From Podarcis pityusensis (lineage: Eukaryota): a stretch of DNA of 64,000 bases. The notes under the pieces are model-generated. The model saw nothing but the letters and a program-made list of their open reading frames with translations, searched no databases and was not told the origin of the DNA. Below, in pieces: positions 10,841 through 57,246 of this stretch. The first letter of the stretch is position 1. Each line of letters begins with the position of its first letter. Location: assembly GCA_964106645.2 (NCBI GenBank), contig OZ067039.1; one strand, given 5' to 3'. The translations under genes were made by a program, and so were the position numbers.

Positions 10841-11965
10841 ATGGGGGATTACGGGTTTGGCGTGTTAGTGCAAAACAACACCGGGAATAAGTCAGCTTTT
10901 CCAGTCAGATTTCATCCACATCTGCAGCCTCCGCACCACCATCAAAATGCAACCCCCAGCCCCGCTGCTTTTATAAATAACACAGCTGCCAATGGCAGTA
11001 GTGCTGGGTCAGCTTGGCTCTTTCCTGCTCCAGCTGCCCATAACATTCAGGATGAGATTCTGGGGTCCGAAAAATCTAAAACTCAGCAACAGGAAAAGCA
11101 AGACTCCCTAGAAAAACAGCAGCTTTCCCCTAGTCAAAGTCAGGAAGCAGGCATGCTGCCTGAATCAGAGAAATCTAAATCTGAAGAAAACCAGGGGGAT
11201 AATTCTTCCGAGAACGGCAATGGGAAGGAGAAAATAAGAATAGAATCGCCAGTGTTAACAGGATTTGATTATCAAGAGGCTACAGGGCTGGGTACTTCAA
11301 GCCAGCCCTTGACATCTACAGCATCTTCTCTGACTGGTTTCAGTAACTGGTCAGCAGCTATAGCTCCTTCTTCCTCAACAATAATCAATGAAGATGCGAG
11401 TTTCTTCCATCAGGGAGGGGTTCCTCCTGCTTCAGCTAATAATGGTGCTCTGCTGTTTCAGAATTTTCCACATCATGTCAGTCCTGGCTTTGGGGGTAGT
11501 TTTTCCCCTCAGATTGGACCCCTCTCTCAGCACCACCCTCATCACCCCCATTTTCAGCATCATCACAATCAGCATCAACAACAGAGAAGGTCTCCTGCAA
11601 GCCCTCATCCACCTCCATTTACGCATAGAAATGCTGCTTTTAATCAACTGCCTCATCTTGCTAATAATCTTAACAAACCACCTTCTCCATGGAGCAGCTA
11701 CCAAAGCCCATCACCTACACCGTCTTCTTCATGGAGTCCCGGTGGCGGTGGTGGATATGGTGGGTGGGGAGGGTCCCAAGGGCGAGACCACCGCAGGGGA
11801 CTGAATGGAGGAATCACACCCCTGAACTCCATCTCACCCCTGAAGAAGAATTTCCCAAGTAATCATATCCAGTTGCAGAAGTATGCACGGCCCAGCTCCG
11901 CTTTTGCTCCAAAATCTTGGATGGAAGACAGTTTGAACAGAGCTGACAATATCTTTCCTTTTCAG
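10841..11965 (+). CDS. CPEB4: CPEB4 coding exon 1 (1125 nt, 375 codons; intrinsically disordered N-terminal domain with His cluster)
   Basis: ORF MGDYGFGVLVQNNTGNKSAFPVRFHPHLQPPHHHQ...DNIFPFQ is recognisable as the CPEB4 N-terminus. Donor CAG|GTGAGA at 11965/11966, phase 0. Confidence 0.98.
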
Positions 11966-23900: not shown

Positions 23901-24769
23901 CAGCTAACACCATATGATGTAGCCTTGGAGGCCTCCCAAAAAAAGTATTCCAGAGCTGCCATGCTACACTGGAAAATCCCCATTTTGAGTACACGTATCT
24001 AATTATCCATGGAAAGGTAGCCTATTGGAGATCCCTAAAAGTAGTGGGATTTTATATGAGAGAAAGTGTTGTCTAAAACACACAACATATTTAAGGTCAT
24101 CATTTAGTGACAGTGAATTCTGAAATGCTTTTCACTAGGTCTTGATTTGCCTTAAATACTGAAAAAAAATCTTTTTGGATTTTTTAAAAATATGAGGTTG
24201 TTTTGAACTGCATTATTTGTAGAACTGATTTTGCCTTACTTATTGTGTATTTGATATGATTGTATTGATCAAAATGCTGTTCACTTGTTTTTAATGCTTC
24301 TTTATTGTGAGCCATTTTGAGCTCAACTTTGTTGCAAAAGTGGCATGCAAATATTAAATCAAACTAAATTGCGTTAAAGCAATTTTTATGCCACATAAGA
24401 AAAATATTTACTCAAATGATGCAGACATTATATATTCTGTACAGTATCTCGTTTCTTGGTAGGAGTACCTCTGAATTAGGTTCAGATAACCTTGACTTCC
24501 TAACTTGAAGTAACAGTACTTTTGTTTCAAAATTATTGTGCTCCAAGGGACTGATCCGGTGTATACCCACTTAACTTCAGTAAATGCTGCAGCCTCCAGT
24601 GCTTACAAACTGTTCTCCAAACCATTAATAGTTTGCTTTACTCTAATCAATATAAGCTGATTCGGAGTATTTTATTAAATTGCTGCTTAAAAAAAATCTG
24701 ATTTGAAAAGGTTTCTGGGTAGTTCTTAGTAGCATTCTCTTTAAACTGGTATTTGTGTTTTACTTGCAG

Positions 24770-24851
24770 GATCGCACGAGAACTTTTGACATGCATTCAC
24801 TGGAGAACTCGCTAATTGACATAATGAGAGCTGAAAGTGATTCACTGAAAG
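24770..24851 (+). CDS. CPEB4: CPEB4 coding exon 2 (82 nt; DRTRTFDMHSLENSLIDIMRAESDSLK-G)
   Basis: Acceptor gtgttttacttgcAG|GAT and donor AAAG|GTAAAC. Hand translation matches the CPEB2-4 MHSLENSLIDIMRAE motif. Phase 0-1. Confidence 0.96.
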
Positions 24852-27063
24852 GTAAACTTGGATTACTCTTTTCCTGCAATAAATAATTAGGCTGACATAC
24901 TTGCACAAAGTATGAAGCTCAAGTATTTATAGAATAGCTAAAGCAGTTACTTCCCCCTCCTATTTGTTAGTTTGTCCAGACTCTGGACCTCCTTTTTCTT
25001 TTGCTTCAAGTGGAAGCCGTCAGTAAAACATTTGTGTGTGGTTAATGGCCTCCTTGGCATAAAACCTCTTAAAAACACAGGCCATGTTTTCCAACATTGC
25101 TTTCTGAAGTGGATTCAGATTAGTAACACTTTTAAAATGTGATTTAAAATTGAAGGCTTATCTGAAGATATGTAAAATGCACCTACCCTGTTGGCCTATT
25201 TTCCTCAGTATGATATTTTACAGTCTTGGGCAATCCTGTTATACCATAGATATAATGTACAAGAGTCCTTTGAATATTAAGGGTTTTGTTGGAGTACAAG
25301 GTAACCAACTGACCTAGCCCTAGAGCTGTGTATGTACTGTCTGTCTGGTAAGCTGGTGGAAAAAGTGAGCTAAGCATATAAGTTACAGAAGTGATGAATT
25401 TTGGTTTGGATGAAGATGCCACTCAGTGTTGTTTCATTGTGGTTCCTCTATATTGTGATACACCTACAAAACAAGATGGTGCATAATTTGCCCCTGAATT
25501 GAAGTTTAAGGTCCATTTAACTTGGGACAGGCCAAATGCACTGGTTCCACTCCATAATTAATTTCTTTTCAATGACTCTTGGAATTATGGGAAAGGTAGT
25601 TCCCATGTTCCATCTCTGCTCCTAGGCCTGGTGATATGGTAGCCTCTTTGACCGTGGTAGCTATATTTCCCATTACATGGATTGGCTCAAGTGTTCCTAG
25701 GAACAACCCAGGCCCAAGAGCAGGCTGAGGTCTCAACAATGGGGAACTATACTACTAGTAATTAGGGATATAGAAGTGCCCTGACTCCCCATTGTTCAGA
25801 CTTGGAGCTGATTCAAAATCTTTTAAACTCTGGCATATGTGATGACAAAATTATCTGTTGTCATTGAGCATTTTGTGTTCCTGCAGACTCCAGTTAATCT
25901 GTGCATTATGCAGAATGGATGATACTCCTAGTCCAAATTTACTGCTGAAATCTTGTAAATTCTGACAATGACACTTTGACATTGAAAACTTTGTCAGAAA
26001 CATCTTAGTGGGTACACATACTGCCTACTCTGGATGTAGAGAATAAATTAATAAATGTCTGCTGCCTGACAAAATGAACAATGCTTTTATCAGCTGAAAA
26101 TGGTACAGCTTGAGGAATTGAGGAGGTCACATAAATAACCATTCTTCTGTTCTGAAAATGGTTTGAATCAAAACATACCTGAAATATGTTAACGTACAAC
26201 CTCCTAGAAGCAGCATGTTAAGCAATACATTTGTCTTGTTTAGGGTCAGTGCTTAAGCAATAATCTTAACTTACATGTCTCGGGGTTTTATGTGTCAGAC
26301 TCCCTTATTTATCTACTTTGTCCAAGGCTTTTGCTTTAGTTCATCACTGGCCTTGGCATGGCTAGAGCAGATTTACGGCCTTCCTGGAAAGTAAATTTCT
26401 TCTATTGTCTAGGTTTCTGGTAGTAATGGAATTAACTTACCCTTTAATAGTTCTTGTCACAAAGAATCCCAAAATGCTTGACACAGTGGCTACCCAGAGT
26501 TGCTTCTACCCACTTCTGGGGTGAAAGCAGTAGCTACCACTGTCACCAAACATAAATAGCTATTCAGGGTGGAGAATAAATTATCCAGGTGAAACATATG
26601 GGGGACCTGAGCAGCAGGTATGGTCTTTCCTCAAAGAGAAGAGAGCCAAATCCAGTTTCATTTAGCTTCCTGCGCCATGGCCTTAAACTATGTGAAATAG
26701 AATCTTAATATATAACCATGTTGCCTCATGTGCAAGTACAAAAATGTCCTATCTTTGTAATTAATTACCTTGCAGGCTTATACTGATATCAAGTATATAA
26801 CTTACATTATGCTGCATGGAACCAGCTTATAGAAAACGCAATTTAGCAAGTGGTGTGGTGTAACTAGGCAAGTCCCATGCCTTGAACAGTAGCAATGAAC
26901 ATGCATTATTGTTTGATTTCAGTTACATAATACTGTTGTTGGGTTTCAGAGCCTTTCCAAGGACTGTATCTTCTGTACCTTGCTTCTTGGGAGGAGTACC
27001 TCTGAATTTGGTTCAGATAACTTTCACTTCCTCATTTGAGTATCCACAGCTGGCTAATGGCCT

Positions 27064-27836
27064 GGTTTGCAAATAACACTAAGCCAAACCATGGCTAAAC
27101 ATGAATGTGTGATCCTGTGACTACTTGTAGCAAAAATTGCAGCTGCTTCATACCTCCCCTGGTCCTCCTGCTTCCAGGGGCAGCCCAAAGCATTTTGGTG
27201 ATTGAGACTAAATGCCCTGCTGCTGCCCCCTTGGTGGGATGTAGGAAGGGATTTCCCCCCTTGCTGAGACTCCCTGCCCTGCAGTGAACTTTTCCGCGGG
27301 CCTCCTTCTGCCCCCAGGGGCAGAGCAAGACCAGCAGCAAAGCAGAGTGGTGGAACTCCCCACTCTCGCCGAAACTAGGTGAGAGTGGGGCGTTCCAGTG
27401 GTGGCAGAAGCAGTGGGGCAGGCTGGGTGCTGCCTCTTGCATTTCTGCCGCCTGAGGCAGCTGCTTCACCCTGCCTCATTTGTGTGCCTGCTTTGCCTGC
27501 TGCCACACTGCCTGGAGCTTAACCATGGTTTGGCTTAGCATTACATCTGAACCTGGGCTTGTGATTTGTCTTGCTCCAGACAAACCATAAGCTGTAGCTA
27601 ATGGTTTGTTTGGGTGCGGGGGGGGATGGGACTTACAGCTCATGGTTTGTCTGGGGAACGCAAACCACCATGAGCCTTGATTTGGATGTGATGCCATGCC
27701 AGACCATGGCTTTGCTCCAGGAAGCATGGCAGTAGGATGACCAGAGGAGTGAAGTTGCTGCCATCTTTGCTGTGAATACATATATGCTTACACATTCGTC
27801 TTTAGCCATGGGTTGGCTTAGCATTACATGCAAACT
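27064..27836. mobile_element. Non-autonomous DNA transposon-like element with ~45-bp imperfect TIRs
   Basis: GGTTTGCAAATAACACTAAGCCAAACCATGGCTAAACATGAATGTG pairs imperfectly with CACATTCGTCTTTAGCCATGGGTTGGCTTAGCATTACATGCAAACT. Extra internal copy of the AACCATGGTTTGGCTTAGC motif at about 27521. Confidence 0.7.
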
Positions 27837-29400
27837 GTGTCAGTGTCTTACTTAACTGAGTCTGTGGTCACCTTATCATAGCAATCAGAACTGCTTGGTC
27901 TGGGAAATATTCTGTGTACTTTTAGGTGCTTCATCCTGATAAGAACTGCAGAAAAGGGACATGGTTTCCTTTCATAAATAAGTAATCTAGGTTAATTGGC
28001 TTCCAAATAGACATAATCTAAAATAGAATTGCTGTCAAGGTACTTAACTTTCCATGTATGCATTTTAGCTATTTAATGTGAAATATTTATTATAGTTCAG
28101 TTGTGCTATTTTGTCATTGCACGCTTTTAAGAGGCTATTTACTGTAACTCTTCATAGGTTGTTTTTTTTTAATAAGCATCCCAAAAAGATGTAAGATGTG
28201 ACTCTGTAAAGCTATTCATCATCTCATTACTGGGTAAATGGGGATATAAATATTTCTGTATACTACAAGTTATTTTTCAAGGTGGCATTTCCTTTCAAAT
28301 GTGAGATAATTGGCAGAAGCCTTTGTTGCTTGTGAAGTTTTAAAAATAGGCTCACACTATAACTCTAGAAAACATTCTGAATCCCATGAAATTGGATTGG
28401 CACACCGGATAATGGTAGCACAGATAGCTCAATTAATATCTGACTGAGTGCTTGGCTGCATGTTACATTCATCACATAAGAAGTAATCATGCATAATGTC
28501 AGACTTTGACCACTGAAAAATTTGAAGTACTCCTTGAAACAAGCAAAGAAAGCTAGAGTTGATTGTAGGCAGGCTGGAGACACGATAATCATTCTTTTCC
28601 TCAGTGGCTATTGCCTTAAGGTCAGGGATAGAGAATCCCAGGCCCTAATAGTGGACTGTGGGACTCTCCCAAGCCACAGCCCCTCTTTGGGTGATTCTGG
28701 TTAGCAGGAATATGTCATTGAACTGTGATCATGCCTCTTCCTGGCTAACTGGAATGTAGAAGCCTCTGACTTTTGTGTGGCTGGAATGCAGCCCACCATA
28801 CTCAGGTCACATCCATTGTTCTTCCCACCATTGCCTCTGGATCCAAGCACCACTGACTTGCAGGAGCTGAAAGCCTGTAAACGTTGAGAGGGAAATGGTT
28901 ACTAACGAACTAGCAAATAAAGAAGAACTTTTTTAAAAAAATCTTTAATGTATTTTTGTCACATATACTACCCAATTAATCATGTCCCTTAGGCAGTTCA
29001 CAGATTTCAGATAAATAAAATATGAATACAGTCAACCAAATCAATTAATATAAAAGTTGCACCAGGAGAAAAATTAGCATAAAACCATATAATAACATGG
29101 AATAAATGGTTGGTGGATGAATTAAGTTGGCCAGTAGTTCCTGGGAATGGGCCACAGACTTGTGAGCTGCCTTCTCTCTCGTGAGAATTCTCTCTTTTCC
29201 TGCCTCTATCATTATGGTTAATAACTACATCGGCACTGACCTTAACACTGTTTCATGTTAACCAAGGTTCCCATTGTGCCTATGGTTTGCAGAACTGCTT
29301 CAAAATGTTGATTGTGGTAGAAACACTGGTTAGGTTGATGCAATTTAATACCTAGCCATGATAATGGGTTATGAGAAAGGGTTGGAGAAATTACTGTATG

Positions 29401-29508
29401 ACAGGGATGGGGAACTGCTAACCCTCCAGATGTCAGCCCCACCCATGGTTGGGATGATGGGAGTTGTAATCCAACAACCACTTGAAGGCTGCCGATTTCT
29501 CATCCTTG
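29401..29508. mobile_element. Degraded copy of the hAT-type MITE family (another remnant at ~38158-38260)
   Basis: Shares CCCTCCAGATG and GGGATGATGGGAGTTGTA with the 34228 element. Confidence 0.6.
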
Positions 29509-29925
29509 CTGTATGAAATGTAGATCTTGGAAAAGAGTGTGTGATTCTGTGACCTGTTCAAATCTCTTGGCTAAGATTAGAAATCAGGATTGTTACCCAA
29601 AGTTCTCGCGAGCTCTCATACATACACTCCTGTTCTCTCAAATGTGTTTGCCTAGCAAGAAGAGACAGTAGCCTACGTTCAGCTTTTAAAATGTATACCC
29701 AATTGAATAATTAAAAGCTGAAGAAAACAAAACATGTGTGTAGGAAGCTGTGGTATCGGTTCACCTTGGGGTAAGTCACTATTAAGTGATAGCTGCAAAA
29801 GGGTATGCTTTTCTGGTTATCGTAGGTGAATTTTGAAGAGCAATGAGACTGCTTCTCTCTTAATTTTTTTGAGACATTGTAAGCACAATAACCCCAGAAG
29901 ACTGCAGACTTTTTTTTGTCTGTAT

Positions 29926-30104
29926 AGGGAAGGACCATAGCTTTGAGGTTGAGAATGTTTTGTGTGTAGAAGGTCCAGATTCAATTCATAGCAGGTAGGG
30001 AGTACTCCCTGTCTCTTAAACCCTGGAGAGGTGCTGCCAGTTGGTGTAGACAGCACTGAGTTAGATGGATCAATAGTATGTTTTGGTATAGGGCAGCTTC
30101 CTGT
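29926..30104 (+). mobile_element. tRNA-derived squamate SINE (related minus-strand copies at ~2878-3010, ~6240-6420, ~35728-35920, ~40640-40815)
   Basis: tRNA-like head (GGACCATAGCT...GGTCCAGATTCAATTC) and a shared tail (...CTGAGTTAGATGGATCA...GGCAGCTTCCT) recur several times in the window. Confidence 0.6.
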
Positions 30105-30645
30105 ATATAGAGGGGATTTTTGTTTGGGGGTAAATGTGTATCAATAGCCTCCTAAAGAAGCATATTTGCTTGGTTTTTCTTCCTGGAATGTTTTTTTTTT
30201 TTTTTTTTAAAGTACTGCACTTTTGTATTTTAGCAGAGACAGTGAGTTATACTACCCAAACAATTGTCCTCTAAACTATTGTCAAATGTTAGGGAACTTT
30301 GTTTTTGTTGACCACCTTCCTGAATCCTCCATTATTTGCCTGCCTTGAGCAGCTGTCATTTTCAGTATGATATTTATATCCACAAGAGTGTCTGCAGAAG
30401 TCTTTCTCTAGAGACTTAATTGCATTTCCTTTATGAGAGATTTGACTTTCATGGACTGAACTTGACACAGAGAGACATGCTTCTCCTCCTCCTCACTACA
30501 GTTATTTGAGATGGCAATAATAATGAATCAGACTATACTTTCTTCCCTATAATAAAATATACTGCGTAGTCTCAAATGGTCATCAGTTGCCTGGAAGTAG
30601 GGCAGGAAGAAGCTGATTAACTGAAGGAGGATAGTGGTATAATAA

Positions 30646-31510
30646 AAACATAAGAAGAGCCCTGCTGGATCAGATCAAGCCTTCATTTAGTTTAGCATCC
30701 TGTTTTCCAGAGTGATCAACCAGATGCCTCCAGCAAGTCATCAAACAAGGCGTGGATGCAATAGGCCTCCCATGTGTCCATCCCTCTTAATGGGTATTCA
30801 GTGGAATATTGTTTACGAAAATGAATCTTCCACTTAGCCACCCTGGCTGATAGCTACTGATAGATCTATCCTGAATGATTTTACAAAATCCTCATTTAAA
30901 GTAATCTAAAGCTAGTGTTGGTAACCACATCTTGTGGTAGTGAATCCATCAGTTATGCATTGTGTAAAGATGTGCTTTATCTTGTCTGTCCTGAATCTAC
31001 TGCCAGTTTCATTGGGTGACTCCCAATTTCTAGCATTATGAGAGTGGGAGGACACGTTTTCAATATACACCACCTTCATGCCATAGACTCATTGAATTGT
31101 GGAGTAGGGAAGGAACCACAAGTGTCATCTAGTGCAACACCCTGTAATGCAGGAATCTTTTGCCAAACATGGGGCTTGATTCCATGACCCTGAGATTAAA
31201 GGTCTAATGTTTATAAACCTGTTTCAAAAAAAAACCCCAAACCCTTTAGGTGTTACTAAACTGAAAAGTCCCAAGTGTGTTAGTCATTCCTTGTAGGGAA
31301 AGTGCCTTAACCCACTTGATCACTTTGGTTGCCCATTTTGCATTGAATCCATTTCTGTACTATGGGGTACTATGGATTTCAAATCCAGCCACACCAGAGA
31401 TTTTATAGAATGACATTATGATACTGATAGTCGTCTTGTCAATGCTTTGCCTGGAATTTTCCTCTTTTTTAACACTACACACTGAGTTAATGTTTTTGTC
31501 GAGCTATCCA
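30646..31510 (-). mobile_element. Degraded CR1 LINE 3' fragment with a nested SINE
   Basis: Starts AACATAAGAAGAGCCCTGCTGGATCAG..., resembling reptilian CR1 3' ends, and continues into decayed ORF2-like sequence. Recognised from memory of the family, not by search. Confidence 0.6.
31082..31210 (-). mobile_element. tRNA-Lys-derived SINE fragment with CR1-type tail, nested in CR1 (related tail fragment at ~41897-41970)
   Basis: GCCAAACATGGGGCTTGATTCCATGACCCTGAGATTAAAGGTCTAATG aligns with mismatches to the reverse complement of tRNA-Lys(CTT). It is preceded by a CATAGA(A/C)TCAT-type CR1 tail. Confidence 0.65.
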
Positions 31511-31883
31511 TAATAATCTTTTTTATCTACCATAACCCTATTTTATTTTATTAAACTCTTTTAAATATTGTACTGTATTTTATATTGTTGTACCCTGCCC
31601 TGAGACCTTAGGGTGACGTATGAGTAATAAATCAAACTGTTATTAACATTAATAATGAATAATAATAACCCCACAATCTTTCCAAGTTACTAACCGTCAG
31701 TTGATTAATATACCTGTGAATTTGGGATTAAGTATTCAGCTCTGCTAAGCTTTCACACTGTTGTGTGAGGTTAGTTAAAAGTAACCAAAGCAAAGTCATG
31801 AAGTGCTCTTAAAATGGTGAAATACTTAGGTTAATGATGTTGAGGAAGAATAAAAAATTATCTCCCTTTTAGATGAAGTCATT

Positions 31884-31886
<3 letters not shown>

Positions 31887-31914
<28 letters not shown>
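31887..31914. repeat. (AT)n microsatellite
   Basis: Directly visible. Confidence 0.9.
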
Positions 31915-31918
<4 letters not shown>

Positions 31919-34227
31919 TTCCTGTTCCATTCTTAAAATCTATGAAAATAAAGTGGTGATAGTATTAATGAGAGCAGATTAGGTTATTGTAGGAGGTACA
32001 TTAAATGTATCAAGCCCAGCTGGTTGCATCATATTAAACTGCTAAGACAACTACTGTACAGTGTTTTTATGTATGTTGATCATTGAGGATAAGATTTCTA
32101 TAACACCTCACTTTTTTCTTCCAGTGTTAAAATAAAATGGTGCCACTTACAACTAGAATGGGGAAGTACTGGCAAACTATGGGAAAGCCCCAATATAATA
32201 TGTTAAATAATAGTGGAAGCTTTCTTGAAGCAGCAAGCAAAATCTAGAAATAGGAGGATGCAGAAACATTCTGCTTGTGTTTTCTTAGTCCACCTCTTAT
32301 ATGCAAGAAAAAGAAATTTTGGTGACAAGAAGACTGTGTCACAAAGAAGTTCAGAGCTTCAACGTGCCTTCTTAGTCTGTCTTTTTCAAGTTGCAAAATG
32401 CTGACTCAAAAGCTAGTTGGGTGACATTAAGTGCTGTGTGCAGCAAGCTACAGCACATTACTTTCTGCATTAATTAGAGAGCCTGTTGCATGTATTGCAA
32501 CACAGCTGCCTTGTAATAATTCTGTAATATGAAGAAATTCTAGTTTTTTATGCAAACCCCATGGTTTTCTAATGTATGGAACATTGCTTTATCTGAATGT
32601 TGATAGAGTATAGTCTGTATAGTCTGGGGCAAAACCAAATTGAACAGTTTTGATGCAGCCTAGTGTCCATTTTTATATTATCTAAATCGGGAGCACCGTA
32701 TAAGTACCCCTCCCATGACTCACTCCTTGATGTGGTTGGTTGATATAGACTCAGCTTCAAGTCTTGGTTATATGTAACTGCACCTCTGTTTTTATACTGA
32801 ATCTGCTCCATGTATGGTTTCATTATTGCTTGTATGGTTATGCATTAATTTGCCCATATGTTTTTGATAAATCAATACAAATTTTCAAAAGGAAAAAAAA
32901 ACCCCTGTTTAGATAGAATATGAGGAGGGAAGTAAAGGAATGATTTAAACTCTCACTTCATTTATTTCTATGATGGGCCCATTATTTTTTCTGTAGATTT
33001 GCTGATTTTTCTGAAGTGCCTATTATGCTTGGAACACTTTCTGTGTGAAGGTTTTGTGGTTTGAGGACTTCTCTTGAGGTTGCAGTCACATGTGTCCATT
33101 TGCAGTAAAACGGCAACCACTGACTTGTTGAACATCCTTTGACGGAGCTTTCAGAAAGCCACAGCCACTAGTGTGCAAGATCAAAGGCAAATGAGTGACT
33201 TATTCAGTATTTTGGACAACTAATAAACAGCTCACTGAAACTATGCTTAAAATACAGCCTTATTCAAGGAAGTTATTCTAAAGTAAGCTGCCTCCTTCAA
33301 ATAAGACATAATGCTAACTAATCACTATTTGAGCTTGTTTTTAGAGAGATGAGTAGAGCCAAGTGACCCCTTGGCTTGAAGAGGCTGTAAACCTCCCAGT
33401 GGCTTGCTTAAGGTGGTAATGCCTAATAAGAAGCCAAGTTTTTAAAGTTCAAAACATAACCAGACTGGTTACCAGCTTTGTACATTCTCAGGAGATAGGG
33501 GAGTGTCAAAATCATTATATTGGTGCTTTCTCCCCCTTCATTGATGATACTTGAAGGATCTGTATGGAACTCGAACCCTCTTAAGGCATATTTTATACAA
33601 GTTAAGTAAACATGCGGGGGGGGGGGGGGCATGGAAGCAGGCATACTAGCTCCACCACCACCAAACCTGCCATTCTTCTGATTTCCCTCCACAAATTGGA
33701 AAGTCAGGGTTATAAAATGTGTGGGAGCCTCAGTGAGTGCAGGAGATTTCCAGCTTCAGAAGACTGCCTCCAACCCAGAAGAACTGGTGGGGATGGGCAC
33801 ATGTGCTTCTCCCCATGGCCCCCTCTTGTATGTTTACTTAACATGTATAGAGAACACCTGAAGAAGGCTTTTGTGTCCTCTGTCATTGTTGTTCATTTTC
33901 ATTCGTTTCAGTAGTAGGTGGGTTCTCTTGGAAAACAAAAAGAAAGTGGGGCACTTGTGTAAAAATGCATGTAGGAGGTGCTTGTGTGGTATTGGATAAG
34001 ATGAGTGCTGGACTTTCAGCAGAACAAGCTTCTGCAAAGTATGAGTAGAGAAACAAGAAAATGACTTTGGCATGTTAAGTATGTTAACTTAATATGTTAA
34101 GTGTAGAAGGTGGGGTGGACTGGACTGGGAAGGGAGGGGAGCCTAGAACATGTGTTTGATGGGGTTAACTTTCAAAAGATTTAGGAGAATGAAGAAGTCA
34201 TCTGATTGGGAAGTTGATACTTTTGAT

Positions 34228-34363
34228 CAGGCATAGGCAAACTCAGCCCTCCAGATGTTTAGGGACTACAGCTCCCATCATCCCTGACCACTGGTCCTGT
34301 TAGCTAGGGATGATGGGAGTTGTAGTCCCAAAACATCTGGAGGGCCGAGTTTGCCTGTGCCTG
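34228..34363. mobile_element. Palindromic hAT-type MITE (136 bp)
   Basis: TIRs CAGGCATAGGCAAACTC...GAGTTTGCCTGTGCCTG, near-palindromic throughout. 8-bp TSD CTTTTGAT at 34220-34227 and 34364-34371. Confidence 0.9.
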
Positions 34364-37300
34364 CTTTTGATTCTAGCTGAAAGTAGAGGTGTAACATTTC
34401 TGGAATTTTTGAAGCCATTTAGCCTGCCTTCTAAGGGGAAAGAGAAATATATGCATTATGTTCTTCTCATACCTAAACTTAGATTGCCACCTTGAGATCG
34501 TGACATGTATTGTGCGTAATTTAGCAAATAATACTACATTGTTTGCTATGAATGTCTTTAAAGTTTTATTCAAACAACAATTATATACTGTAGTCAGTGC
34601 TTAAGAGGGACCTGCAAGTTGCTGGACCTAAAAGTGAAAAAATGTATTTTGGATTTTGCTAGTTGGCAAAATAATAATAAAATAAAAATTGACAATGGGA
34701 ATGCTTGACACTGTAGTATACAAAAGGGAGGCTTTATTATCTGGACTTAGTGAGGGTGGCTTGTATCCAGAGAACTGTGCGATTAGCTTTGCATACCAAG
34801 GAAGCTTTGGAATTGTTTTTCTCAAATAGCAGTTCCCCTTTCTCATTTATGGCAAACCTCTTTTGAACCAGAAGAATTTTATAAGCCGTCTGTGCTATGG
34901 AGTGCAATTTCCAACTTTAAAGGAAAAGGGCCTAAGATCCCCCACCCTTGAGGTTGCAGAAGGCTGGTCTGAGGCAAAGTGCTCATTCAGCCCTTTCAAT
35001 GAATCCTATGTCTTCTAGGCGAGGCATCACTTTTAACTCTTAAGGTAGCATTTATGAAATGGCAGTTGGCTTTTATAATGCATTTGCTACCTGACATACC
35101 CCTCAGTATTTTGGACAACTTCTTAACGAATGTTGCTATTGAATTGTCATTTGGCTCCAATCTACTTTGTGGGAGTTCAGTTAAATGTGCCTTACTTAGA
35201 GACCTCTGCATGAGAGGACATTGGAGGTGCTCTCCTTCACTTCAGTGAAACCAACAAATGTAAGCCTCATTTTTGAAAAATGACACATCAAAAGAATGAA
35301 TAGACCCAAAATAGCAGCAAGAATCCGCCAAGGTCATTGAGCAATAACCACGGTACAATAGCTTGTGAAGAAAGAAACTGCTTCTATGATGAAACCTACT
35401 TTTCTCTTCTGGTGTCTGAAGAATTTCAAAGTCTGTGCCAGAGGATGCCACTGTCACAAAGAAGAGAATTGACTGTGTAACAAACTTCATTTTGAGGTCA
35501 TTAGAAATGACATAGTTAATAGATCCTTTTTTCTTAGTGTCTCTTTTTCAAAATTAATTTCTTTCATGTTTTCATGCTGGTCTGATTTACCTTTTTGGAT
35601 TGTATGAAAACTAACGGGAAAAAATACACTGATTGTGTTTCTGGTGCTGGTTTCCTTATTTGGCTTGATGTCCATGTGGTGGTTGCAAGCTCCGGACTGC
35701 TCCTTTCTTATAAAACAGCTTATAAAGAAACATAGGAGGCCAACTTGTACTGAGTCATACACTGATCCACCTAGCTCAGTATTGCCTAGACTAACTGGCA
35801 GAAGCTTTCCATGGTTTCAGGCATAGGGCATTCACAGCTGTACCTGGAGATGCTGAGGATAAAGCCTGAGACCTTTTGCATGCAAGGCAGATACTTTACC
35901 AGTTAGCCATTTCACTTCCCAAAGGTCTGCTGAAAAGTTCCAAAAAGGGGGCAAGGGAGTTCTAAGTTGAAACTGAGTGAATTAGACAAAGTCATCTCTA
36001 TGAGAAATGCAACTTACAGAGAGCTCACAAACCTCCCTTTATCTCAAGCTAATTCTTTCTTCCCCAGTGCTGGATATAGGCAGAAACAGGACTCTTGAGG
36101 GCCTCCCTTCATGTGAAGTTATTAGAGCAATGATTGTGCAGTTCTTATCTATTTGTTGCTCAATAGCTGCAATACTTTCTTCATGGAAAGACTTCTGTTT
36201 CAGAAGTTGTTTCCTTTTCTCGGAACGTACTCTCAATGTGATATATCAGCCTTCATCAATCACACCACAGAACTGCAATTGCAATGGCCAAATGTTGCTA
36301 TTGCAATGGCTGTTGCTAGTGACATCATAAGTGACAAAGCAATAAAGGCCTACTTACATGCCAATGCCATTTTGTGGGCATTTATTTTTACAGTTTCTTA
36401 TGGCTGCCGGCTGCACTGCTGTGCAACATCAGTGCTTGATTGCTTATACAGCAGTATTTGAAGCTATTTGGTGGTTCCGTCTTTCCACAGAGTCATTTGA
36501 GGAACTATTAAAGTTTCTATCCCACCTAACCTGGTATTTAGTTAGCATTCAGCTGGACAGGGCAAATTTCAGCTGCTGTATTTAATTCTGTGATTACACT
36601 CTTCAATCTTTGGGGTCTGCCCTCCTGGGAGCGTTTGTAGATCTGTTCTAATTAAGCTGATAACTTGTAGATAAAGACACAATCTCTCTCATTTTCTTAC
36701 AATGGAATTATCAGTGTCACTTCATTTTACAGCGAACCAAGTTCAAACTTGGAAACTCAAGAATTTTTATTTCTGAGTTGTAAGCTTACCTCCCCACCCT
36801 CCTTTAAGCCAAGTGTTGGATGACTATTGACATTCAAAGCTTTAAATAAATTTCAGTTCCTGCTACAAAGTTGTCTGGGTTTTTTTAATTAAATAGGTAT
36901 TAAGTAAAATAAAAAATATTAAATAAGCATTAGTTTATTGCACAATCATAGTATAAGCTGATTACTTGTAAAGCTGTATATTGAACATTCCATCTGAAGT
37001 TTAGTTTTGCATATAGTGAGGCTTGTTATTTAAATAAGCAAAGGATGAAGCGATTCTGGAGAGACTTGTTTGGAATATGTTCTGGGATGTATAGACATAC
37101 AGGTACATTCAGAACAGACCCATGATGGAGCTGTGACAGTGTTGGGTGAGCACAGGGCCAGTAGTGGCAACTGCACCAGAGTGAGCAAAAAGATGGAGAT
37201 GACAGGTAGGGAACTGCCGAAGTTCTGAAGCAGAGAACTTGTGAGATAAGAGCCTCCCATCCCCTTAGCCTACTGTGGTTGTCCTTTGGATTTGCTGCCA

Positions 37301-40300
37301 CTCACCTTGTGACTCCACCTTGGTTCTCACCTGCCACATTATGCCCAGGAATTAGTGTAGGTTTGGTTGTGTACAGTGGTGACAGCGGGAACTGAAGTAG
37401 GAACAGGGAGAACTAACCTGAGGAGGGGATGAGAGCACCAACCTCTTTCATGGCCAGTGCCTTGGCCTGCTTTGTGAGGAAAAGACAAAGTGTTCAACAT
37501 GTTTTTAAAGAGTTCACGTTACTATACACCCTTGCATCATTATTTCTCTTTTAGCACTATACAATACACCACATGATGCAGTATTTCAGACAGTAGGAGT
37601 TTACAGGAACACTGCCTAAGGTGTTGGAACTTAGTGCTGAAGTACTGGATTATCCTGCAAACACCCACCAAAGAAACAATATATGCAACAAAGCTCACTG
37701 GCAGCTCTGTCCATCTGTTTATTATGGCAACACTATTGCTGGACAGTCATGTTGACTATTCTACCATATCTAGTGCCATAGTATATCCTCTTCCATCATT
37801 GCCCTGCAGTGGTCTTTTAGGTTGTGGTGGGGTGGGGATGAGCAAAGAAAACTGTAAATGAAACATTAATTAATATATATTTCAGTTCTTCTAGATGCCC
37901 TATTTCTGGCCAGTGTTTCAATATTCACAGCTCCTAATTCAGAAATAACATTTTAAAGAGTTTGGGGGTGTTTCTTCTGCTCAGGCAGTGGACAAATGAC
38001 CACCCCCCCTTTTGTTAAGCAGCCCTTAAACATGTTGCTCACTGCATCACTGTAATGCGCAGTTAACCTTTGTTTCACCTTAAGCTCAGTTTCCAACCTG
38101 TGTTTATATATATATACCTCAGCTCTTCAAAACTTAGCTCATCTTTATTGGAATAGGACAGCCTTCCCCAGTGTGGTACCCTCCAAATATTTCTGAGTAC
38201 AAACCACATTATCACAGGTCACTGGTTGGAGCTGATAGGAATTGGAATCCAAACTGGAGTTGTTTCCTTTGAAAGGAGATACTCTCTTAATTTGAGAGCC
38301 ATAAGAAAAGGGTTGACCAATTTGCAGCTAAAGTCTAATGAATTTGAGTTATTGTATCATGATGGGAAACCATATTAAAAAAAGAGCATGCACCTGTCTA
38401 ATTCAAAGACAAAGAGCTAAAATTTCTAGATACCTTAAATGACAGTGCTGTAGAATAGTTGGTTATGGCAGCAACTCTAGACCTGTTATTGAGTGGCTCC
38501 CAGGACCTGGTATAAGAGATAAAATTAAATTTAAAATACCCTACATGTTTTTATTTATAATTTTAACGATAATTACATTTATAATCTGCCCTATCCTGTT
38601 GATTTAGTGTTCCATATACAGTATACACATTTAATCTGGTTGTTAAATGTCAGCCCAAAGAAGAGAATTCTACAATTGTTTTGCAAGTATTTTATTTTGC
38701 CATTCAACATTTCTTGGCTCATTTAATTTTTTTTTTTTTTAAAAAAGTGACTTTTCTTATTTTTATTTCCTGAGAATCGGCCATCTTAGAAATAAACCAT
38801 TCCATAATGTCTGTCTGATATTGTGAAAACCTATGCAAGTTTGTATGGTGCATATGCATATAAGACTTAATATTTTTGGTAATCTGAACATTGTGTTTAC
38901 AGCCACCCTGAATAAAGTTACTGATTTTATAAGTAAAGTTCCCTAATCAGACTGCTACCCAGAGAAATTACAAACAGGTTGTTACTTAAAGGTTGTAACT
39001 GTGGCTGGATTTATTGTTTTTTTTTCTTTTATAAATAATTTGGGTTCTGTTTTGTAATATACCTCAAACTTCAGGTATTTTACAATCTAGCCCTTCCAAC
39101 TGCTTTGTCATTGCTATTTCTTACATTAACTTCATGTGAGCTAATCTCATTCACATTACCTGCACATGAGCCACTTTCTCACATTAGTGTCCCATGCATG
39201 AATTGATCTTTCTCTTCTGATGCTGTAAATGTAAGAAGGGTTTTGGACAATTTGTCATGAATTAATTTGAGGGATCGGAACTTTATTTGCTGTTCTTAAA
39301 TGCTGGACCAGGTTAAGCAAAATTTGTGTTGGATATTTTATGTTGTAGCATGTAGGTTTCTTTCACTCAGATCAGAGCAATGCAGTGATGCTAGCAAATT
39401 CCTTACTGCTTGAGTTATTCTTTGTTCTCTCTAATTGTAGCTGCCCCAGGAACAATTTTGCCTACAATTGACTACAAAGTACAGACGCTAATTCAATACC
39501 ATCAAGATTCTCAGTATTTATGGTTGATAGTGTAATTTGTAACTGGGTGATTTTCGAGTACTGTACTCAAAATTTAGAGTATAGAAGCACATTGAAAATC
39601 TTAGGTCAATATGCAACATCAGCCACCAGGAACACACACCAATTTGAACCACCTGTTGGATCCCAGTAGTTTCCTGAGCTTTAGTAAAGTGCTAATGACC
39701 TTTAGAGGCTTGGCTTTTGATACCTCTCTGCACCTGGCCTGGGGCGGGGCCTGACAGGCCTCATAAGGACTGCTCCTGTGACTGCTGCCCAGCAAGCACT
39801 GGGGTATTTCAGCTGAAGTTTGGAAGAAAAAGTTTGCTGGTAGGTTCAGAGAAACTGTTTCTTAGCACACATTTCAGCTTAGAGCATTCATTGTTTCAAT
39901 ATGTGATGAAGGCTCCTAGCTTAGATGGTTCTCTTGCTCTCTCTCTCTTTTAAAGGTCTAGACAAGTTAATGGAGATTAGATACATCAATGACTATTAGC
40001 AGTAGTAACTAATGAAAAATGGGTATTCTATCTGCTTAACAAATATGGGGTGGTTGTCGTCTTCATGATCTGCTTGTGAACTTTCCTATGGCATCTGACC
40101 AGTTGCAAAGTGCTGGATTAGATGGATCATTGTTGCTGTGATCCACTTAGGCCATTCTTTTCTTGCATTCTAGTAGATCAGGTTAAGCATTTTAGCTTAT
40201 GTTCCCTAGTTTACAAAATTTATGAAAGTAATTACAGAATAAACTGTACAGGAATTTTTGGTTTAACAACAAATGTGTTGCCACTTTGGTATGTAAATAG

Positions 40301-41969
40301 TGTTGAAAAATGGAAGCTTAATGGGAATCAGTAAACTGTTAGCAGGTAAATATGAGATCCTATAGATTTTTGCTTGATTGAATGGTTCTTGGTGGTTTTA
40401 TAGTTTCTTTTGTCAGTTTAATCATCATTCCCTTGACCTCAAAAACTTCAAATCACAAGCAGCTCCACACTTTACAGAGTAATCATCTTTCCTTGGGATA
40501 CACAATTGTTTCCCATAGGCATCTGGTTGGCCTTCTTGAGAACAGAATGTCAGAGTACATAAGCTTTTGATTTGACCTGGCAAGGCTCTTCTTTTGTTCT
40601 TACAGTGTGACCAGCACACACCCTTAACAGTTTGTGAACAAATGAAGCTGCCTTACGGAAGCAGACCATTGGTCAACCTCATTTGTATTTGTCACTCCAG
40701 CAGCACTGGCTTACTGATGTCTGAGGCAGGCAGTTTCCCCACCTCTTGATATCTGGAATTCTTTTGAATTGTGTATGGTAGGGATCAAACTTGGGGACTT
40801 ATGCAAGCAGAACACTTCCTCCAAATATATTGGGGAGATGTGGCCCAGTTGGGGCTCCCTGGCATGTTTAGGCAGGTGTTGTATGCCACACGTATTTCCT
40901 TTTACACTTTGTTTGAAGCAGGAAATATTGGTGTAACAGCATTGATGGGTGTAGTATTACCTAATGTTTCAGGTAACGTTTTGGGGAAGTGAGCTCCAAC
41001 TGCCTATGACAGTCATCCTTTCCTTCTATCAAAGTTCTCCTTTCCGCAGAAGCTGCTTCTCCTGCAAAGCAGGACCATCCTACTCTCATGTTTTCCTGTA
41101 CTGTGTCTGCTGCCACAACTTTATCTCCCCCCACCCCCCATGTGTTGGTCAAACTATTATCATCTTTCATCTCTCGCCTGTCTGTTGTATCCAGAGCCAG
41201 CCCTACAAACAGGGATCGTGTCAGTTCTTCCTTCCATACAGGCCTTTAATTGTTGGTCCTAGATAAATGAAGAGTAGAAGCTGGAATGGGAGTTATCACT
41301 ACTTTTGGAATGGTTAGCAGAAACATCAGTTTCTCAAATTCTATTCTAGAACTCTGTACCCATTACAGTTAATACCTGGATGCAGTGATAATGACTTTCT
41401 TTTGGAAAGGCAGCTACCTTCAGATACTAACAAATATATGTCTATAAATATTCTTATAATGGTTCTGCTTCCACAGTGGGCAGATAATAAAGTGTTCTTC
41501 ATTACAGAGATTCAGAGAGGTAAATGAATTTTTTAACAATAAGTATAACAGGATTGCAGTTTTCTGGCACAGTGAATGGGGTTGGGGATGAAGTTACAGA
41601 CTATTTCCCCAGCTGTGAGCCATTCGTGTAGTTTCAAATTAGGATTGAGGGAAATCTAGCAATGAAAGTTAGGTTTGTCAACAAAGGAAGCTGTGTAAAT
41701 TGGCACTAAAATCACTTGATTTTCATCCAGACAAAATTTTTCTATAAAGGTTTTAGAAGCAATCTTTCTCTGCTTTTTGGCTCCTTTGATGAAAGGCATA
41801 TTTTATGTGAAGTGAACTGGGGCACTTATAAAGTAGTAGACTTCTCTCAAGTATGTAACAAAAATACTGGAAAATGCTTCAGAAAATAGGGTGGCTATAG
41901 AATCATAGAACTGTAGAGTTGGAAGGGACCACAAGGATCATCCAGCGCAACAGTGCGGGAATCTTTTGC

Positions 41970-42533
41970 TAGGCTAGATCCAGAAGTGGCCCACCCACTG
42001 CTTATTACTTTTGACAGATAGGTGGGACCACCCGTGACACTTAGATGACATTGGGTGATATCAGGTGTGTGATATCACTTTCAAAGGAAGAATTTGGCAA
42101 ATACTTTTAAGTGCCCTCTTAATTCTTCCTTTGGAGCCACGGCTTGAATTTCAAGGCACATTTAGTTTAAATTCAGTGCTGAATACAAGTCCCACTTTCA
42201 GCAGGGATCTGCTCTGCTCAGGGACTCTGATATGGAGCTCCTGAGTGGAGCTGATTAAAGCAGGGCTTGTTTTCAGTGCTGAGTTTAAATTCAGTGCTCA
42301 ATGCAAGCCCCACTTTAAGCAGGGATGGCTCCACTCAGGAGCTTCCAAATGGAACTAATCCCATTAGGGCTTTCCTTTGGCATCAAATTTAAAGGCACTG
42401 AATGCAAACCCCTTTTACAGAAGAACAATTGGGAGCACATTATGCGCCACAGCCCATTCAAATGGGTCTTGTGGGCCGAATTAGGACCACAGCAGGCCTA
42501 ATTTGCCCTGCAGCCTGAGCTTTCCCACCCCTG
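41970..42533. mobile_element. hAT-like element remnant with internal ~110-120 bp degenerate tandem and inverted repeats
   Basis: TTTAAATTCAGTGCT(G/C)AAT(A/G)CAAG.CCCACTTT.AGCAGGGAT at ~42166 and ~42284, with a weaker third copy at ~42388. Ends ...TTTCCCACCCCTG, a hAT-like terminus. Confidence 0.5.
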
Positions 42534-44552
42534 TCTTAATCTGTCAAACATTAGCACCCTGTGAAGATTACCACTGGGGCAATGCACTTGAGCTCTGCCT
42601 CTAGCTGAAACTTCAGTCTGTACTTGAGTCAGAAACATCTAAAACTTTTTGAAATATATGATACAGGGATAACATCATCTTCATCTCAGGAATGTTTTGA
42701 GAATCACTATAGCGTTGTCTAGATAATATAAATGTGGATGACACAAATGTCACTGTATTTCAATACATACATGAATAGGTCTACATATATTTAAAGGAGT
42801 TTTTAAAGTTGTAGTGTTTGGCTGTGGTTTCTGTGAGAAATCTGTGTTAGAGACAGCTTGGAAATCTGCAGCAGGAAAACCTACTGCAAGTCTGTATTAT
42901 TTTCTTGGTACCATTTATGTCAAAACCAGACTCCTTGTGACACATAAGTGACAGAACAGGGAGTCTGCCAATTCAGCATCACTCTCATGGGCCTCACTAG
43001 GAATTGCAGCTATGTTGACCAGCTCGTCAGTGTACCAAACAAGGAAAGTTGTGTTGTATATTTGGTTTTGTTAGCCAGTTATAGACCACAAGCAGAATTT
43101 TATAGCTTTTTAGGCAGGGAATGCTCTGAAAACACTTGAGGCTCTGTCAGGCAAACACAAGGCAGAGTAGTGTAGCTAGATTTTTTACTTCAGTAATTAC
43201 AGAAACACCCTAGGCCTTTCTGGTTTTATAAACAATGAAATACTTGATGTTTAGCAGGAATTATTGTCAAGACCTTCCTTTCCAGTATGTTGATACTGAG
43301 TGTTGAATTCTCCTGTCCACTGTACAGTTATTACCCCTTTCTAGCTCCAGCCCCTCTGAACATGCTGCCAGTTTTGCCTCATCAGACCCTGTGTGACTGA
43401 GGGGTATTTTAATTTGTTTGAAAGGAGTGAAGAGAGGATACAGGCGAGAAGAGCCACTGGCAAAAGCTCTGTTCTGTGGAGAGAGTTGGTCAAGTAAACG
43501 TGTTGGGAGTGGAGATATCGGGAACAAAAGTAACAAATCTTTTAGGAAAACAAAAACAAATGTTTTGCAGGGTTCATATTTTCTATTTTTTATTGATGAA
43601 ATGCCTGAACCCTCAGAGTCAATACAAGTGGTTCTTAAATAGTGGGTTGTAAGCTTTGCTGTATGTTCCTAATACTAAGTGTTGAATACGATATAATGTG
43701 ACATATGATGCTCTCTGCCTAATGGACTATCCCTTGTTCTGGAAATTAGGGGGATGTAATCTTGTTTCTGGGTTTAATAGGTAAAAAAGAACGTTGCTGG
43801 TTGCTGCTCTGTGCATGAGGTGCTTGTTGATGTGTGAAGCTTTTTAACTCGAAAAGCTATAGCATAGCTGTATTTTTCTTCTTCACTGGCAGCATTGAGA
43901 AGCTAGAGTATTGGAGCGATTTATTCTCGATGGCCAAAGCTGACAAATAACAGAGGGAGTGCAATAGATGTAGGTAGAAAGCAACCAGTTTTGATGCCTC
44001 ATACCTAATTTACAGAGTCCTGCATTGGTTTATCCCAATTGATCATGTGCTTAGAAGTGACTTGCTAGATGTGGGGCTAAACTGGGAGTTGTAGGCCCTT
44101 AGACATTGACCTTCCTGTCTTTGATGTCATGGTGTTTGTATGGTCCTGTCAGTTTTTCCTGTGTAAATTTTTCACTGGGGAGGGTGGTACCTTGTAACCA
44201 AATGTCATGATATTGAGGAAACACACAGAATGCTAGAACTGAAGTCGAAAGATGCAGTGTCCTAGCAACATGAGAGAAACAGTCACTACTAATAAAGTTG
44301 CAGATCTGCAGGGTGCCCTTGTGAGCACAAAGCAGCTAAAGAGTGAGTTTTCAAAATGAGATCTCTTTGCTAGCTTCTGTCATGTTGTTGTGTACCCAGT
44401 GACAAAAGATGTGGGTATGGGTGGAAGGTTTCTTATGTGGTCTGCAGCGCATTAAAGCCTAAGAACCACTGAGCAATCATAAGGGAGGTGAAACAATATA
44501 TATATATTTAACAATGTTTGAAAGGCTGTTTTTCTTCTCATTTGACATGCAG

Positions 44553-44576
44553 CAAGGACATATGGGAGAAGGCGAG
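44553..44576 (+). CDS. CPEB4: CPEB4 24-nt neuronal microexon (mammalian exon 4; ARTYGRRR)
   Basis: ttttcttctcatttgacatgcAG|CAAGGACATATGGGAGAAGGCGAG|GTAAC. Phase 1-1, encodes (A)RTYGRRR(G), the known CPEB4 8-aa microexon peptide. Confidence 0.95.
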
Positions 44577-44702: not shown

Positions 44703-44708
44703 TGCATG
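44703..44708 (+). promoter_or_regulatory. RBFOX element TGCATG downstream of the microexon
   Basis: Exact TGCATG about 126 nt 3' of the microexon donor, a position where RBFOX proteins typically enhance inclusion. Confidence 0.6.
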
Positions 44709-48157: not shown

Positions 48158-48331
48158 GTCAGTCTTCACTGTTCCCAATGGAAGATGGGTTTTTGGATGA
48201 TGGACGTGGGGATCAGACGCTCCATAGTGGCTTGGGATCACCACACTGCTTTTCCCACCAGAATGGCGAGCGAGTGGAACGGTACTCCCGCAAGGTGTTT
48301 GTAGGTGGTTTGCCACCTGATATTGATGAAG
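48158..48331 (+). CDS. CPEB4: CPEB4 exon (174 nt; GQSSLFPMEDG...RKVFVGGLPPDIDE, start of RRM1)
   Basis: Acceptor cctcttttccattgtAG|GTC and donor GAAG|GTATAC. Contained in ORF 48055..48372. Includes the RNP2-like VFVGGL. Confidence 0.97.
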
Positions 48332-50226: not shown

Positions 50227-50316
50227 ATGAGATCACCGCTAGCTTTCGCCGCTTTGGCCCTTTGATTGTGGATTGGCCTCACAAGGCTGAAAGCAAGTCC
50301 TATTTTCCTCCTAAAG
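50227..50316 (+). CDS. CPEB4: CPEB4 exon (90 nt; DEITASFRRFGPLIVDWPHKAESKSYFPPK, RRM1)
   Basis: Acceptor ttccctctgacctacAG|ATG and donor AAAG|GTAACA. Hand translation, phase 1-1. Confidence 0.97.
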
Positions 50317-51679: not shown

Positions 51680-51798
51680 GATATGCATTTTTGCTGTTCC
51701 AAGATGAAAGCTCTGTGCAGGCTTTGATTGATGCATGTATTGAAGAGGATGGAAAACTCTATCTGTGTGTTTCCAGTCCCACAATTAAAGACAAACCG
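51680..51798 (+). CDS. CPEB4: CPEB4 exon (119 nt; GYAFLLFQDESSVQALIDACIEEDGKLYLCVSSPTIKDKP, RRM1)
   Basis: Acceptor tttctttatctacatAG|GAT and donor CCG|GTAAGT. RNP1-like KGYAFLLF spans the junction. Confidence 0.97.
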
Positions 51799-52858: not shown

Positions 52859-52973
52859 GTTCAAATCCGGCCTTGGAATCTTAGTGATAGTGACTTTGTG
52901 ATGGATGGCTCACAGCCTCTAGACCCGCGGAAAACCATTTTTGTAGGAGGAGTTCCACGACCCTTACGGGCAG
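52859..52973 (+). CDS. CPEB4: CPEB4 exon (115 nt; VQIRPWNLSDSDFVMDGSQPLDPRKTIFVGGVPRPLRA, linker and RRM2 start)
   Basis: Acceptor tcttctgcttgtAG|GTT and donor GCAG|GTATGG. Overlaps ORF 52898..53104. Confidence 0.97.
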
Positions 52974-53222: not shown

Positions 53223-53404
53223 TGGAGCTTGCAATGATAATGGACCGGCTGTATGGAGGAGTTTGCTATGCTGGAATTGACACAGATCCTGAGCTGAAGT
53301 ACCCAAAAGGAGCTGGGCGTGTTGCATTTTCTAATCAACAGAGTTACATAGCTGCTATCAGTGCCCGCTTTGTTCAGCTGCAACATGGAGAGATAGATAA
53401 ACGG
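53223..53404 (+). CDS. CPEB4: CPEB4 exon (182 nt; VELAMIMDRLYGGVCYAGIDTDPELKYPKGAGRVAF...HGEIDKR, RRM2)
   Basis: Acceptor actttattttAG|TGG and donor CGG|GTAAGG. ORF 53222..53467. Confidence 0.97.
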
Positions 53405-57018: not shown

Positions 57019-57246
57019 GTGGAAGTTAAGCCATATGTCTTGGATGATCAGCTGTGTGATGAATGTCAGGGGGCCCGTTGTGGTGGAAAATTCGCTCCAT
57101 TTTTCTGTGCTAACGTTACCTGTCTGCAGTATTACTGTGAATATTGCTGGGCTGCTATCCATTCACGTGCTGGCAGGGAATTCCACAAGCCCCTGGTGAA
57201 AGAGGGAGGAGATCGCCCGAGACATATTTCATTCCGCTGGAATTAA
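57019..57246 (+). CDS. CPEB4: CPEB4 last coding exon (228 nt including TAA; ZZ-type zinc finger)
   Basis: Acceptor cttcttttaacacAG|GTG. Encodes VEVKPYVLDDQLCDECQGARCGGKFAPFFCANVTCLQYYCEYCWAAIHSRAGREFHKP...FRWN*. Confidence 0.98.
   Translation: MEVKPYVLDDQLCDECQGARCGGKFAPFFCANVTCLQYYCEYCWAAIHSRAGREFHKPLVKEGGDRPRHISFRWN

Follow-up and report, generated by a model that had tools for sequence, protein, structure and literature searches.

The 51-nucleotide (nt) exon 3 of mammalian CPEB4 is absent from the CPEB4 gene of the lizard Podarcis pityusensis, which we analysed in a window of 64,000 nt (contig OZ067039.1, assembly GCA_964106645.2); none of the CPEB4 proteins of reptiles, birds or frogs that we examined contains it. 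The likely history is one loss in the ancestor shared by reptiles and birds and another, independent one in frogs. We regard the absence as real and ancient; reptiles and birds share it, frogs likely repeat it, and it is no peculiarity of this lizard. Passages of PMC12628316 describe four human CPEB4 isoforms and give exon 3 as 51 nt, and passages of bioRxiv 2022.09.22.508890, which put it at 57 nt, report that the full-length form predominates in control human brain. The CPEB4 microexon has been tied to autism and schizophrenia, and no function is described for its neighbour, exon 3, in the passages covered.

The gene in the window is a CPEB4 ortholog, the best-matching proteins being named CPEB4 with up to 97% identity. 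Its N-terminal, RRM and C-terminal parts are of CPEB4 type, and the CPEB2 and CPEB3 genes lie at two other loci. We identified nine exons with GT donors, and with AG acceptors at all eight internal exons (Table 1). Joined, they give 2139 nt, equal to 712 amino acids (aa) and a stop, with the reading frame open throughout. Exon 1 is 98.9% identical to an alligator-lizard CPEB4 model (P0179) and the end of exon 2 matches that of snake CPEB4 models. Aligned to the full-length echidna, lemur and newt proteins, the lizard protein shows one large gap, of 17 aa after residue 402. The microexon is present with intact splice sites, as in the mammalian four-isoform gene, and no 51-nt phase 1-1 exon lies between it and exon 2. 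The gene model, the gap and the profile scans described below thus bear out the original prediction that exon 3 is missing while the microexon is intact, and its count of 712 aa, 17 short of 729, agrees with the open frame.

Table 1. Features of the CPEB4 gene in the window.
Feature	Position	Strand	Description
CPEB4 coding exon 1	10841..11965	+	375 aa, disordered N-terminal region; histidine cluster from residue 231
CPEB4 exon 2	24770..24851	+	82 nt, phase 1 at end
CPEB4 intron, expected exon 3 site	24852..44552	+	19.7 kb; nothing exon-3-like above chance; several interspersed repeats
Intron start	24852..24895	+	conserved with birds; faint, non-significant exon-3 likeness
CPEB4 microexon (= mammalian exon 4, a neuronal microexon)	44553..44576	+	24 nt, intact, AG/GT ends, TGC 5 bases upstream
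TGCATG	44703..44708	+	127 nt downstream of microexon
CPEB4 exon 5	48158..48331	+	174 nt
CPEB4 exons 6-10, RRM and ZZ region	50227-50316, 51680-51798, 52859-52973, 53223-53404, 57019-57246 (incl. stop)	+	

Exon-3 peptides for the profile scans of the intron were drawn from the retrieved proteins, and the echidna peptide (P0056) proved to be the one given in the original prediction. None of the 51-nt open stretches in phase 1 with AG and GT or GC ends, among 1045 candidates in the intron, resembles exon 3. The best scores of two peptide profiles against the intron were 17.8 and 21.1, with null means of 18.3 and 20.1, and scores at least as high arose in 103 and 62 of 200 Markov-shuffled introns; true exons held out of the profiles reach 51-72. 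With a 21-peptide profile the intron reached at most 17.0, and the whole window 17.6 on the plus and 20.1 on the minus strand. A gapped DNA-level model of exon 3 peaked at 16-19 bits in the intron, and simulated exons gave approximately 38-45 bits when intact, 25-27 (median) with 20% of sites mutated and 15-18 at 35%. An intact or lightly decayed, recently inactivated copy of exon 3 in the intron is therefore unlikely. Nor did we find above chance in the intron a pseudo-exon remnant with broken splice sites, in a scan that is blind beyond approximately 35% decay. The best peptide look-alike, at 32688-32738 on the plus strand, was rejected: it has a correctly placed GT but no AG, its score lies within the null, equally few base changes would suffice at 994 of 19,648 positions, and most of its mismatches need two changes. 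No reads of run X24 fell in its bin. A search of the genome with a 44-aa peptide spanning the exon-3 region returned no candidate but missed the known exons too, and is hence uninformative.

The same genome has homologs of exon 3 at two other loci. Exon 2 and an RRM exon of CPEB4 each match two paralog loci, on C9 and C5, which we take from their sequence features to be CPEB2 and CPEB3. The name of the C5 locus is also supported by a primer in the passages available from PMC2807433. The CPEB2 locus has a 51-nt, AG/GT-flanked exon-3 homolog (G000:C9:4222455-4222505) followed by a microexon, and CPEB3 has a 57-nt homolog, likewise AG/GT-flanked (G000:C5:63070195-63070251, minus strand) and followed by a microexon. 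Against the 21-peptide profile these exons score 51.4 and 38.4, compared with 17.0 for the CPEB4 intron, so that the scan detects exon 3 even across paralogs. Run in this form, the search of positions 24852-44552 that had been proposed as a check found no exon and recovered those of the paralogs. At the DNA level the lizard CPEB2 exon aligned to the CPEB4 intron with a score of 33.5, against 33.2 for shuffles and 50.5 for the CPEB3 exon. A genome-wide pattern combining the acceptor with the 5' part of the exon gave a single match, the CPEB2 exon, although a reversed control pattern also gave one. The variable regions of CPEB2 and CPEB3 have a short homologous exon followed by a 24-nt microexon, both kept in this genome; they differ in that CPEB2 keeps a 51-nt exon and CPEB3 a 57-nt homolog and, apart from it, a 69-nt extension, and the loss is in CPEB4 only.

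The lizard CPEB3 locus carries a 69-nt alternative-donor extension (near G000:C5 63082260-63082330, minus strand) in addition to the separate 57-nt exon. Passages of PMC4767366 describe a 69-nt alternative-donor extension in CPEB3 and name B and C regions within the variable region of CPEB2 and CPEB3. Because CPEB3 keeps both elements, CPEB4 exon 3 has its homolog in the 57-nt exon and not in the published C region of CPEB3. A weak fourth match to the RRM exon (G000:C14:44005251-44005367, 46% identity) is probably CPEB1.

To place the loss we assigned 270 retrieved proteins to clades by hand from their names. The rows are isoforms rather than species and form a partial sample (120 of 332 matches, with at most 15 members per cluster); 22 unnamed rows and those without exon 2 (three squamate, one frog, one mammal and three ray-finned) were left out of the counts. 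Exon 3 is found in none of the 118 sauropsid rows (turtles 0/8, crocodilian 0/1, squamates 0/14, birds 0/95) and in none of the 12 frog rows with exon 2 (P0087 and among P0177-P0190). It is kept in all rows of salamanders (5/5), caecilians (4/4), coelacanth (3/3) and cartilaginous fish (15/15), in 23 of 31 ray-finned fish rows and in 37 of 52 mammal rows, leaving eight and 15 rows without it. Outgroups on both sides, from mammals, salamanders and caecilians to coelacanth, fish and sharks, therefore have the exon, and forms that skip it are known in mammals, paddlefish, arowana and gar, making it an in-frame alternative cassette there. Searching directly for the exon-3 region yielded 18 proteins, among which no sauropsid or frog carried the peptide and the only sauropsids were three bird models. 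As salamanders and caecilians keep exon 3, the frog and sauropsid losses would be two separate events; the frog case is the thinner, with no usable Ascaphus row and one Pelodytes isoform. Together with the CPEB2 and CPEB3 exons, the clade distribution supports the suggestion that exon 3 is ancestral, with homologs in its paralogs.

The same counts do not support the proposal that the loss is specific to this lineage. Several independent, recent losses within reptiles, one of them confined to this lizard, would draw some credit from the frogs, which show that exon 3 can go more than once. Such a history is extremely unlikely, as no sauropsid row examined keeps the exon, related reptiles included, and the intron holds no lightly decayed remnant of the kind that a recent splice-site mutation would leave.

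A further question is why many bird CPEB4 models are as long as the mammalian protein. After exon 2, 67 of the 95 bird rows run on with GK followed by F, S, V or L (P0007, P0012, many of P0018-P0069 and of P0139-P0147, and P0208-P0221). Because unnamed genomic open reading frames passing through exon 2 show the same letters, we conclude that these inserts are intron read-through, which likely comes from forcing the mammalian protein onto a gene without exon 3. Of 73 inserts of this kind, the best match to exon 3 scored 20.8. The bird proteins of about 730 aa are thus an annotation artefact that masks the absence of exon 3. The two owl models (P0016, P0017) and a dipper model (P0044) show a few exon-3-like residues after the read-through, with chance-level scores and read from the models only. 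A loon model (P0023) has an insert before the microexon that is unrelated to exon 3.

Several observations weigh against an ancient shared loss. The clade pattern comes from protein models, in a partial sample, and not from the genomic DNA of the other species; tuatara is not represented, crocodilians are represented by one row, an X2 isoform, and Pelodytes by its T2 isoform only, Ascaphus has no usable row, and such models could leave out an exon that is seldom spliced in. The owl models carry an unexplained 17-aa insert with YPGS, albeit scoring 17.6, at chance level. In the lizard intron, a remnant decayed by at least 35% would lie below detection, and deletion and decay can thus not be told apart. 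Lastly, the junction of exon 2 with the microexon or exon 5 was unobserved in RNA reads. As had been predicted, the microexon would join exon 2 directly, which is the arrangement in the 711/712-aa models of reptiles and birds.

The reads and the assembly bear on whether exon 3 exists in the lizard but is absent from the assembly, or escapes notice through strong divergence or rare splicing. None of the listed runs sharing this sequence carries an RNA label. We mapped four of 24 listed runs, from related organisms, to positions 24700-44400, with the microexon and exon 5 outside this stretch; the RNA mapping could not show the exon 2 junction. Few reads fell on exon 2, and split and loose read ends were mostly repeats. 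Run X24 had a mean depth of 1.59 in the exon 2 bin; a 51-nt exon would add approximately 1.0 to a single bin, close to the background, which reaches 0.87. A DNA run that contains all sampled words, and which may be the assembly's own sample, gave depth in 30 of 30 bins; among the pieces listed, its contigs closely cover about 27450-34321 and 39745-41923 and differ at few positions, leaving the intron partly unspanned, and depth is low in some bins. Nevertheless, we consider a hidden exon very unlikely. The intron has 0 N, as originally noted, and DNA-contig depth in every bin; the sequence of exon 3 can be recognised all the way between sharks and mammals and from one paralog to another; and a fault in one assembly cannot explain its absence from all 118 sauropsid rows.

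The start of the intron raises the possibility of a different route to the loss. Under intronisation, the sauropsid ancestor would have lost the intron before exon 3, fusing it to exon 2; the junction would then have been reused as a donor and the exon would have decayed into the start of the present intron. Exon 3 begins with GT in mouse, judging from a primer in passages of PMC11711090, and in the lizard CPEB2 exon, and CPEB3 has its 69-nt alternative-donor extension at the equivalent place (PMC4767366, in the passages covered). Within the intron its start ranks second with a 7-peptide profile and fourth with a 14-peptide profile, and it is among 41 of 19,648 positions needing so few base changes to fit exon 3. 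The stretch is also conserved between lizard and birds, reading FPAINN in a shifted frame in the lizard and FPAVNN in the bird read-through. However, the fit to exon 3 needs a frameshift and was noticed post hoc, and in the gapped DNA model the intron start gives 12-13 bits, an ordinary value matched by 21-28 of 261 tiles. A short open reading frame search for mammal or amphibian read-through of the intron start found none among 10 short matches, seven of bird type and three of fish type, so that the conserved stretch may or may not predate the loss. On balance we regard intronisation as improbable. There is correspondingly little chance that exon 3 was lost from CPEB4 twice but, in reptiles and birds, was fused and turned into intron rather than deleted, surviving as the conserved first 45 bases and now possibly acting as a splicing element.

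Under the single loss in the reptile-bird ancestor that we favour, exon 3 would already have been an in-frame, phase 1-1 alternative cassette. Loss of a splice signal or deletion would fix an isoform that was already made, since the exon is symmetric and in frame and some isoforms of mammals and fish skip it. Over roughly 280-320 million years, whatever was left of the exon would have decayed past recognition. Loss of in-frame alternative cassette exons is a known general process, and CPEB4 exon 3 fits it in its symmetric phase, its length divisible by three and its skipping in outgroups. It differs in that sharks through mammals and both paralogs retain it although it was apparently lost twice. 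We found no report of the loss in the literature searched, including that on CPEB4 in sauropsids and in reptiles; subscription papers, a comparative Cpeb1-4 paper and supplements were outside that coverage, so absence from print is not established. The exon-3 loss is apparently an unremarked case of a known process, with the pattern held in databases without comment.

From the gene model, we predict that lizard CPEB4 yields a 712-aa protein with the microexon and a 704-aa protein lacking it, only two of the four isoforms found in mammals. These are the same products as the mammalian exon-3-skipped isoforms such as Q17RY0-2. The lizard gene is otherwise close to that of human and mouse, with 687 residues identical to a 729-aa lemur protein and the same microexon, but these species have four isoforms with an includable exon 3 whereas the lizard has no exon 3. 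In turtle, crocodilian, snake, lizard, bird and Xenopus models (703/704 and 711/712 aa) exon 2 likewise joins the microexon or exon 5 directly, and 700 residues of a 712-aa green turtle model are identical to lizard CPEB4. We found no difference from these models, among which the lizard is a typical member.

It had been suggested that the lizard offers a natural experiment on how exon 3 affects condensation. Passages of PMC11711090 show that the N-terminal domain used in vitro was that of Q17RY0-2, with the microexon at residues 403-410, and that the cell constructs were Q17RY0-1, with the microexon at nucleotides 1258-1281. From this numbering, work on the effect of the microexon has covered forms with exon 3 and forms lacking it. 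Passages of PMC5089860 describe droplet formation by Xenopus CPEB4, and the Xenopus CPEB4 models are without exon 3; the passages covered of PMC9465852 do not mention exons or isoforms. The suggestion is weakened, as the in-vitro domain was already without exon 3, while the cell work used Q17RY0-1. Since the exon-3-less human isoform condensed and was buffered in vitro, the lizard protein would likely still condense and still be buffered by its microexon. Taken together with the Xenopus droplets, exon 3 is likely not needed for condensation or for this buffering.

Vertebrate CPEB4 can dispense with exon 3, as birds, reptiles and probably frogs do without it. Chicken, lizard and Xenopus then offer natural two-isoform models, with inclusion of the microexon as the sole variable. 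The analysis also flags an annotation error, intron read-through giving false proteins of about 730 aa in the bird rows counted above. Because cassette-exon loss is a known process and in-vitro work on the isoform without exon 3 exists, the value of the finding is modest, and of moderate use to those working on CPEB4 and on gene annotation.

Two further features of the region were noted. We take the TGCATG downstream of the microexon to be an RBFOX-type element and the TGC upstream to be an SRRM4 element, in part from passages of PMC12628316. High-copy interspersed repeats lie within the 19.7-kb intron at about 31130-31170, 34225-34365, 41897-41950, 29410-29510 and 39750, and draw most of the RNA and DNA reads.

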